Positions 26,262 through 37,880 of a stretch of DNA of 64,000 nt are shown here, one piece after another. The position numbers and the translations under genes were made by a program. The stretch is from an uncultured delta proteobacterium. Lineage in GTDB: Bacteria; Myxococcota; Myxococcia; Myxococcales; Myxococcaceae. The stretch spans positions 32,001-96,000 of the forward strand of contig CAVYSY010000007.1 in the NCBI GenBank assembly GCA_963771175.1, in the 5' to 3' direction. The notes under the pieces are model-generated. The model searched no databases. It was given only the letters and a program-made list of their open reading frames with translations, and was not told the origin of the DNA. Position 1 is the first letter of the stretch; each line of letters begins with the position of its first letter.

Positions 26262-27321
26262 ATGCTCACCGTCAATGCCTACGCGGCCACGGCCGCGACG
26301 AAGCCCCTCGGTCCGACGACCATCCAGCGTCGTGACCTCGGCCCGCACGACGTCCTCATCGAGATCAAGTTCTGCGGCATCTGCCACTCCGACATCCACC
26401 ACTCTCGCGGTGAGTGGGGTTCGGTGGCCTACCCCGTCGTCCCCGGCCATGAGATCGCCGGGATCGTCGCCCAGGTCGGCTCCAAGGTCACCAGGCATGC
26501 CGTCGGCGACCGCGTCGGCGTCGGCTGCCTGGTCGACTCCTGTGGCGAGTGCGCGAGCTGCCGCAAGGGCGAGGAGCAGCACTGCCTCAAGGGGTTCACC
26601 GGGACCTACGGCGGCATCGGGAAGGACGGCCAGCTCACCCAGGGCGGCTATTCCACCCACATCGTCGTGACCGAGGACTTCGTCCTCAAGATTCCCGAGG
26701 GCATCGGGCTCGACGCCGCCGCGCCGCTGCTGTGCGCCGGCATCACGACGTACGCGCCGCTGCGCCATTGGGGCGCCGGCCCCGGCAAGAAGGTGGCCGT
26801 CGTCGGTCTGGGCGGGCTCGGGCACATGGCCGTGAAGCTCGCGCACGCGATGGGTGCCGAGGTCACCGTCCTGTCGCAGTCGCTGAACAAGAAGGAGGAC
26901 GGCCTGCGCCTCGGTGCGGACCACTACTACGCCACGAAGGATCCGGAGACGTTCAAGAAGCTCGCCGGCTCGTTCGACCTCATCGTGAACACGGTGAGCG
27001 CGAAGATCGACCTCGACGCCTACCTGTCGCCTGCTGGCCCTGGACGGCGCCCTGGTCAACGTGGGCGCACCCGCGGAGCCGCTCTCCGTCAACGTGTTCT
27101 CCCTCATCATGACCCGCCGGTCGTTCGCGGGTTCGCTGATCGGCGGCATCCGCCAGACCCAGGAGATGCTGGACTTCTGCGCCAGGCACCGCATCGGCGC
27201 CGACATCGAGGTCATCCCGGCCAGCAAGATCAACGAGGCCTACGAGCGAGTGCTCGCCTCCGACGTCCGGTACCGGTTCGTGATCGACACCGCGACACTG
27301 AGGTACGGCAATCCGCCGTGA
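26262..27321 (+). CDS. Zn-dependent NAD(P) alcohol dehydrogenase (CAD/YahK-like), frameshift near 27030
   Basis: CGICHSD, GHEIAG, CGECASC...C, LLCAGIT, GLGGLG; C-terminus DVRYRFVID in second frame. Confidence 0.93.
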
Positions 27322-28253: not shown

Positions 28254-28589
28254 TCATGCGTGGGCCTGTTGGCCGACGGCGGTCATCCCCGGACTCGGGG
28301 GCTCCGCCAGCGGGTACACCGCCGTGATGATCTCCCGGTCCAGCCGGTCTCCCACCGGCTCCACCGCCGCGTGGGCCCGGCCCGAGACGTACACGCCGAG
28401 CCCCGTCACCCGCTGCACGTGCGACAGGGGCACCGCCCACAGCTTGCGCGAGAAGCGCCGACGCACGAAGAGCACCGTCTCTCCGATGCACTTCACCTTC
28501 CCGAGCACCGTCCCGTCCTCGTCTCGCACCTTCATCGCGTGCTGAATCGAGCGCCGCTCGAACGGGGATTCCATCCAGTCCACCGCCAT
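28254..28589 (-). CDS. Small DUF2171/PRC-barrel-like protein
   Basis: [18 protein letters not shown]...VPLSHVQRV; similar to 39358..39594. Confidence 0.55.
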
Positions 28590-28707: not shown

Positions 28708-28941
28708 CTAGCGGCCGAGTTCCTTGGCCACCGCGTCCACTACCTGCTGATCGGTGGGAAAGCCGAGCGACTCCTTCCGCAACACCGTCTTGCCATCCAC
28801 GGCGATCTCGAAGCTCCCCGAAGGTCCCACCTTCAGCTCCGAGTCCAACTCCAGGTCCTTCTTCAGCGCGGCCGCCGCACGGACGGCCCGAGGCTTGTAG
28901 CCTCAACCACTGCAATAGGTGATGGTGATACGAGCGGCCAT
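28708..28941 (-). CDS. SelT/SelW/SelH (Rdx) family selenoprotein, TGA codon 13 (28903..28905)
   Basis: AAGGAGG RBS; MAARITITYCSG-TGA-GYKPRAVRAAAALKKDLELDSELKVGPSGSFEIAVDGKTVLRKESLGFPTDQQVVDAVAKELGR*; family motifs continue in frame after the TGA. Confidence 0.9.
28870..28888 (-). promoter_or_regulatory. Candidate bacterial SECIS hairpin
   Basis: mRNA GGCCGUC-CGUGC-GGCGGCC; loop starts 22 nt after the UGA with G at loop position 2. Confidence 0.6.
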
Positions 28942-29051
28942 GTCGGGCCTCCTTCTGGGTGTAGGGATTGAAATAACGAACGACGAGCGGCGTGCAAGCG
29001 GACAACCCATTCCAGGCCAGGAATCCATTGACGCCCGGGCGCCTCGGGGCC

Positions 29052-32175: not shown

Positions 32176-32897
32176 ATGCTCGTCTCCGTCGTCATCCCCG
32201 TCTACAACGAGATCCCCACCCTCGCCGAAATCCTCCGCCGAGTCACCGAGGTGGACTTCCCCAAGGAGCTCGTCATCGTGGACGACTGCTCCCGCGATGG
32301 GAGCCGGGAGTTCCTGCAGCAGCTCAGCGAGAAGGGCCTGTCCGTCATCGGCGGCACCCCGCGGAACCGCAACGAGCTGCGCATCCTCTTCCAGGAGAAG
32401 AACCAGGGCAAGGGTGCCGCCCTGCGCCGCGGCTTCGCCGAGTCCGACCGGGGACATCGTCATCATCCAGGACGCGGACCTCGAGTACGACCCGCGTGAA
32501 ATCCCCCGCGTCATCCAGCCCATCATCGATGGCGACGCCGACGTCGTCTTCGGCAGCCGCTTCATCGGCACGCCCCGGCGCGTCCTCTACTTCTGGCACT
32601 CGGTCCTCAACAACGCTGCTCACCCTGCTGTCCAACATGACCAGCAACCTCAACCTCACCGACATGGAGACCTGCTACAAGGCCTTCCGCGCCGAGGTCA
32701 TCCGGTCGGTGGACATCGAGGAGGACCGCTTCGGCATCGAGCCGGAGATCACCGCCAAGGTGGCCCGCGGCGGCTGGCGCGTCTTCGAGGTGCCCATCAG
32801 CTACCACGGGCGCACCTACGAGGAGGGCAAGAAGATCGGCTGGAAGGACGGCGTCCGAGCGCTCTACGCCATCGGCAAGTACACCCTCAAGCGCTGA
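32176..32897 (+). CDS. GT2 glycosyltransferase (DPM1-like), frameshifts near 32447 and 32615
   Basis: [53 protein letters not shown]. Confidence 0.92.

Positions 32898-33807: not shown

Positions 33808-37880
<4,073 letters not shown>

Follow-up and report, generated by a model that had tools for sequence, protein, structure and literature searches.

A SelW-like gene with an in-frame TGA

The window, meaning the whole 64,000-nucleotide stretch that was analyzed, carries on its minus strand a short gene for a SelW-like protein of the Rdx family (Table 1). Starting at the ATG at 28941, the frame runs through twelve sense codons, a TGA, and 64 further sense codons to a TAG at 28710..28708. The order of the motif is Y9-C10-S11-G12-TGA13-G14-Y15, and reading the TGA as selenocysteine (Sec, U) gives a protein of 77 amino acids. 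An earlier note, made from the DNA letters, had drawn attention to a strong ribosome-binding site, to YCSG-TGA-GY at codons 9-15, and to 64 codons with host-like usage after the TGA, and each of these is borne out on the minus strand. A codon model built from 5106 long open reading frames (ORFs) of the host genome gives +16.8 for the stretch downstream of the TGA and between -2.4 and -58.2 for the five other frames; the GC3 of that stretch is 0.86. A purine-rich site similar to AGGAGG also precedes most orthologs from the same genus. Between 28200 and 29200, neither a sigma-70 promoter nor an intrinsic terminator was found, and in six runs of RNA or possible RNA, the share of words present was only 0.05-0.07.

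Table 1. Features of the SelW-like locus (window positions; distances marked + are counted from the UGA)
Feature	Position	Strand	Basis
Shine-Dalgarno AGGAGG	28948..28953	-	6 nt before the ATG; read from the sequence
Gene for a predicted SelW-like (Rdx) selenoprotein of 77 aa, with stop codon TAG	28708..28941	-	PF10262, TIGR02174, structure model
Predicted CxxU redox motif, Cys10-Ser-Gly-Sec13	28903..28914	-	Invariant at C10 and position 13; matches the CxxC of Rdx proteins of known structure
In-frame TGA, putative selenocysteine codon	28903..28905	-	TGA kept in orthologs
Candidate bacterial SECIS, 7-bp stem +15..+21/+27..+33, loop CGUGC	28870..28888	-	Fold energy, covariation

Protein family and predicted fold

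The protein passes the cut-offs of two family models, TIGR02174 (CXXU_selWTH; 46.2 bits against 34.2) and PF10262 (Rdx; 48.2 bits against 22.6). It is not a member of the Campylobacter equivalog NF041051 (SelTWH_Campy), where its 58.2 bits fall below the cut-off of 88. Residues I7, C10, position 13, Y15, A19, A23, G42, F61, and P62 are invariant in all 25 aligned proteins. The GSFEIAVDG and GFP stretches that had suggested an Rdx protein are both found in the translation, and GSFEI at residues 42-46 fits, in the second half of the protein, the GxFE(I/V) pattern that we take to be the motif of the Rdx, or SelT-SelW-SelH, proteins.

An AlphaFold model (pLDDT 82.7) has the order beta-alpha-beta-beta-beta-alpha, with a strand at residues 5-10, a helix at 16-30, three strands, and a final helix at 64-75. 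The CxxU motif is placed after the first strand and before the first helix. The best Foldseek matches of the model are Rdx proteins (E 8e-7, TM 0.86), and the TM scores to 3dex, 2obk, 2ojl, 2oka, and 2fa8 are 0.85-0.88. A profile search returned the same eight PDB sequences, and in five of the five alignments listed the U falls on the second Cys of CxxC, as had been proposed from the position of the TGA. In the model, the SelW-like protein has a minimal thioredoxin-like Rdx fold.

The fold is shared with SAV_2001 (3dex), Atu0228 (2fa8), 2obk, 2oka, 2ojl, 2p0g, and human MIEN1/C17orf37 (2ljk), with TM scores of 0.73-0.88, and the YCxxC, GxF, and GFP motifs of the Cys-containing proteins align with it. 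The solved proteins differ in carrying Cys rather than Sec and in length, having 103-117 residues as deposited compared to 77 here, and their identity is 25-34%. Mouse selenoprotein W (2npb) is a eukaryotic protein whose SECIS lies in the 3'-UTR. It shares the Rdx fold and family (TM 0.70, profile E 1.5e-5) as well as the CxxU family motif; its reported partner, 14-3-3, has no known counterpart for the myxobacterial protein.

Conservation of the TGA among orthologs

Orthologs were sought in 41 genomes, the host's own and 40 relatives. The gene was matched in 29 of them, including 17/17 relatives of the same genus, and the motif codon is TGA in 28 of the 29 and TGC in one (G032). The earlier note had named uniform Cys in close orthologs, together with a lack of Sec/UCA decoding machinery, as grounds for abandoning the selenoprotein reading, and the orthologs turned out the other way. 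TGA also occupies this codon in 17/17 loci of one set and 21/21 further loci, these sets overlapping, and in all 61 distinct segments drawn from 70 loci, down to about 35% protein identity. The closest named relatives (84-88% identity) are labeled Archangium sp., which makes Archangium the likeliest genus for the host. Two cultured relatives, Archangium violaceum and Hyalangium versicolor, have the gene in its TGA form.

The host assembly is rich in errors, and the TGA could in principle be one of them, or else a Cys codon recently turned into a stop by mutation. The same codon is TGA in 27 other genomes and in all 61 segments, and a conserved SECIS hairpin follows it, so that the chance of such an origin is negligible.

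The presence of the TGA form follows that of the Sec genes. Among the 28 genomes with TGA, selA was found in 26 and selC in 27; the misses are in G007, which is 73% complete, and G021, which is 89% complete and has selB and selC. In the 98% complete genome G032, with the Cys codon, a search for selA, selB, and selC found none of them. Its Cys copy retains a weakened, GU-rich form of the SECIS stem, which resembles the remnant SECIS after Sec-to-Cys conversion described in a passage of PMC1794560. The Cys ortholog of G032 (locus L054) has a gene with PALP and CBS domains upstream.

Across the phylum, 146/301 Myxococcota genomes have a match, and within the same family 106/140 do; these tallies include one unpublished genome, G191. 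Of 150 matches listed, 144 contain a TGA, whose position was verified only in the fetched loci, five lack a stop and are second copies within a single genus, and the last is the G032 gene. All 30 carriers of the TGA gene picked for comparison have selA, as do 16 of 20 picked non-carriers, and a PF10262 search of non-matching genomes gave nothing in 32/32. From this it appears that the gene needs the Sec system and that Sec users can lose the gene, which is dispensable in some lineages. Because related genomes are non-independent samples, all of these counts are to be read as patterns rather than statistics.

The stop-free copies belong to genus g28, where a second match lies beside the first in 5/5 genomes. 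In the three loci that were read (L100, L101, and L102, from G101, G259, and G201), a CxxU gene is followed in tandem by a CxxC paralog ~70-140 nt downstream, likely with a GTG start. This Cys-only paralog is possibly a selenium-independent backup.

A conserved SECIS hairpin after the UGA

The 7-bp hairpin noted earlier just 3' of the UGA is present, and its loop does begin at +22. The bacterial SECIS consensus, restated in the legend of Fig. 2A of PMC13188914, has a loop of 3-9 nt with a G in its first two positions, a stem of 4-16 bp, a spacing of 16-37 nt, and a minimum free energy of -7.5 kcal/mol or lower. When the bacterial SECIS check suggested in the earlier note was run, with our own implementation of the published model, the hairpin agreed with that legend on all four criteria, and no departure was found. 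The loop has 5 nt with GU at positions 2-3 (the G thus at position 2), the stem has 7 bp, the spacing is 21 nt, and the fold energy is -11.8 kcal/mol. Taken alone, the hairpin exceeds chance by only a modest margin, as 78/1500 random TGA triplets from the host pass the same test, and the z of the 46-nt region is -1.38.

The hairpin is judged to be real on its conservation and covariation across orthologs, not on single-sequence folding. In the 28 TGA orthologs, 99.0% of stem cells are paired and three of the seven pairs have two-sided changes. This covariation score was reached by 0/500 shuffles, and slid controls pair at 27-74%. The helix at +15..+33 is the sole helix in the RNAalifold consensus. 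In the 61 distinct segments, 416/427 stem cells are paired, and the compensatory changes, G15-C33 to A-U in 11/61 and C18-G30 to G-C in 3/61, fall at synonymous third codon positions. The loop codon is Arg CGT in 55/59, a rare codon that accounts for 5.4% of the genome's Arg codons. At third positions, codons +5, +6, and +8 to +11 have an entropy of 0-0.74 bits, compared to 1.21-1.77 bits for codons +26 to +29.

A second hairpin of 6-7 bp covers the UGA itself (28889-28905, minus strand) and was tested as a competing structure. It folds well by itself (z -5.2) and is strong in the host and close genomes, but it is unsupported across orthologs. There, 87% of its cells are paired, and 176/500 shuffles have at least as many two-sided pairs. 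Its A:U pair at the UGA fails to form in 23/61 segments, and the hairpin is absent from the RNAalifold consensus fold. It uses the rare Pro codon CCT in 38/58, with no convincing covariation.

Selenocysteine machinery of the host

As the earlier note had observed, no selA, selB, selC, or selD lies in the window, which is part of contig C7; the sel genes sit on contigs C26, C31, C39, and C40. The genome-wide search that it proposed was run on the host assembly (9.8 Mb in 58 contigs, 81.7% complete) and found tRNA-Sec, selD, selA, and selB, so the objection that the genome might have no Sec machinery fell away. The tRNA-Sec has a UCA anticodon, scores 71.4 bits, and is the sole UCA tRNA among 96 tRNA calls. 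SelD scores 380.8 bits, over its cut-off, and has a CxxU-type TGA of its own (HCAG-TGA).

A general suppressor or an altered genetic code might instead place Trp, or some other residue, at the UGA, and 9 of 62 homologs in protein collections do have CxxW. These forms most likely stem from gene calling under a TGA=Trp code. The only UCA-anticodon tRNA of the host is the tRNA-Sec, prfB is present, and TGA ends ordinary host genes such as selB. Moreover, this position is Cys in the solved homologs, and the TGA tracks with selA. Such a reading is highly improbable, though not to the degree of a sequencing error at the TGA.

The other two genes are broken in the assembly. HMM searches split selA, at a single locus, into six pieces and selB into three, both nearly full-length and frameshifted. 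Compared to the gene of G011, selA has 91% identity and 12 single-base indels, most of them an added base within a GC-rich run, with no stops within the HMM pieces; compared to that of G012, selB has 2 indels inside the gene. Taken at face value, these frameshifts would mean that the Sec system of the host is decaying, that UGA13 acts as a stop, and that the SelW-like gene is a fresh pseudogene. Essential genes are hit as well, with rpoB (C25) and gyrA (C21) both split across frames into three pieces, and prfB (C40) into two, although selA is the more heavily hit (12 indels, against 2 frame breaks in rpoB). Both selD and selC are intact in the host genome, and selA is whole in 16/17 genomes of the same genus. 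Among the matches listed, contigs from four public runs are without the extra bases at four selA positions; these contigs are mostly 90-99% alike and come from close relatives, perhaps another strain. Since rpoB and gyrA are also frameshifted, the selA and selB indels look like assembly errors, and an intact selA in the host strain may be inferred. Decay of the Sec system is very unlikely, if somewhat less so than a general reading of UGA as Trp.

Genes split across frames are an assembly-wide error pattern. Within the window, split ORFs occur at 26262-27321, 32176-32897, and 33838-34812; by eye, they are alcohol-dehydrogenase-like, glycosyltransferase-like, and mreB-like.

A de novo scan for TGA read-through gave mostly frameshift noise among its 58 TGA candidates and, at the thresholds used, did not pick up the SelW-like gene. 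The recognizable sites are those of SelD, a peroxiredoxin-like protein (FTGG-TGA; G000:C11:4104(+)), and a PrdB-like protein (TGG-TGA-RLC; G000:C26:111840(-)), and each of the three carries a hairpin that fits the SECIS model.

Gene neighborhood

The neighborhood was surveyed in 71 loci with flanks of only 1.5-3 kb, and no dedicated operon partner for the SelW-like gene was found within them. Genes that lie beside it include a divergent PLP decarboxylase (40/71 loci), a 111-aa ORF (40/71), and dapD (38/71). These neighbors occur only in closer relatives and vanish further out, which points to inherited gene order, and a functional tie to them was dropped. The 111-aa ORF (window 28254-28589, minus strand) has no Pfam or NCBIfam match; its look-alikes in the Atlas are putative PRC-barrel/DUF2171 clusters, with a top score of 0.98. 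In L046, L047, L048, and L049, a TauE/SafE (PF01925) gene lies upstream on the same strand, and it abuts the Rdx gene in three of them. A pirin gene adjoins the Rdx gene in L069, L070, and L071, and L070 and L071 also have a thioredoxin gene.

Decoding of UGA13 and probable function of the product

The reading frame, the CxxU motif, the Rdx fold, the conserved and covarying SECIS, and the genomic Sec machinery together argue that UGA13 is almost certainly decoded as Sec and, with scarcely less confidence, that the gene encodes a genuine 77-aa SelW-like selenoprotein of the Rdx family; the five lines of evidence come from sequence comparison. The earlier note had left the choice between Sec decoding and some other read-through of the UGA. 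The evidence favors the first, by standard SelB/SECIS decoding, and the second is not needed.

The bacterial route, as summarized in passages of PMC1794560 and PMC9312934, depends on SelD, SelA, and SelB with the SECIS. In the host, SelD would make selenophosphate and SelA would turn Ser-tRNA(Sec) into Sec-tRNA(Sec). SelB, on the SECIS loop, would then bring Sec-tRNA(Sec) to UGA13 in competition with RF2. In the product, the Cys10/Sec13 pair, predicted to lie in the loop just before helix 1, would cycle between a selenenylsulfide and the reduced state. The pair would exchange with target-protein cysteines, probably in the handling of oxidative stress or in redox housekeeping. The product is likely a small thiol oxidoreductase, judging from fold and motif. 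It is probably cytoplasmic, since it starts with the first strand of the fold and no signal peptide is evident by eye.

The protein could also act as a carrier of selenium/sulfur or of a metal, or as a binding adaptor, and not as a catalytic oxidoreductase. In 4/71 loci, from four genera, the same strand carries a TauE/SafE-family exporter gene no more than 1.5 kb upstream, which would suit a carrier. An adaptor role would have a parallel in vertebrate SELENOW, whose Sec mediates binding to 14-3-3 according to a passage of PMC13437758. The TauE link is absent from 67/71 loci, the host locus included; other neighbors vary, with thioredoxin and pirin about as frequent (3/71 each), and the pairing of CxxU with a thioredoxin-like fold is typical of redox proteins. 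A carrier or adaptor role is thus an unlikely, though not a far-fetched, account of the protein, and a redox function is preferred.

Relation to known selenoproteins

SELENOW-like proteins (PF10262, CxxU) are a listed family of bacterial selenoproteins in tables of PMC9312934 and PMC13188914, and published passages describe the bacterial SelW-like proteins as predicted and functionally uncharacterized. The protein described here belongs to the same family, with the CxxU motif, a single Sec, a 3'-adjacent SECIS, and no structural difference. It has few Cys homologs in Sec users, in line with a passage of PMC1794560 that reports ten 'SelW-like' sequences and few Cys homologs in Sec-using organisms. 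The host group differs, as 146/301 Myxococcota genomes match here while a table of the 2016 survey PMC5029168 gives the SelW-like family in 35 organisms. In the supplements of that survey, Myxococcus, Corallococcus, Cystobacter, and Stigmatella are Sec users with 1-3 known selenoproteins, in rows that give no family names for these selenoproteins. BSepDB (PMC13326102) includes at least 243 Myxococcota genomes and may well hold the SelW-like family in this phylum. The SelW passages of PMC3316567 concern vertebrates only, and the portion of PMC12013277 searched held no match to the terms sought. No paper on a myxobacterial SelW-like protein was found in a literature search whose scope left out most subscription journals. 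Both the SelW-like selenoprotein gene and its SECIS are canonical, and Sec decoding in the host group was known before.

Annotation and significance

Automatic annotation cuts the SelW-like gene short at the TGA. Among the 62 homologs in protein collections, 41 are without a Cxx motif, 9 have CxxW, 9 have CxxC, and 3 have another residue. The motif-less forms are mostly N-terminally truncated at internal starts, and several of these truncated homologs are named 'selenoprotein W-related protein' by JGI; records that do bear a U may escape retrieval, which limits how these counts are read. An exact look-up of two Cys-substituted translations had no match and was uninformative.

No concept is changed by this gene, as the family, the motif, the recoding mechanism, and the myxobacterial Sec trait are all published. 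The modest addition is breadth, in that nearly all of the matches in 146/301 Myxococcota genomes carry TGA and the protein collections hold mostly motif-less forms. The practical value is a corrected annotation for the SelW-like gene. Conserved across many myxobacteria and followed by a clean, covarying SECIS, the gene is also a convenient test case for the uncharacterized bacterial SelW-like proteins.

A tentative and somewhat doubtful extension is that the Archangium-type myxobacteria are an under-counted, selenoprotein-rich lineage with the SelW-like protein, present in 106/140 genomes of the family, as a core member. Archangium and Hyalangium are presumably aerobes. If the extension holds, most protein collections would lack the SelW-like protein, as might published inventories. 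The extension would also run against the statement, in a passage of PMC13188914, that aerobic bacteria rarely retain selenoproteins; a passage of PMC5029168 has Sec use as common in aerobes as in anaerobes. Lastly, these myxobacteria would offer culturable hosts in which a target of a bacterial SelW-like protein could be found for the first time.
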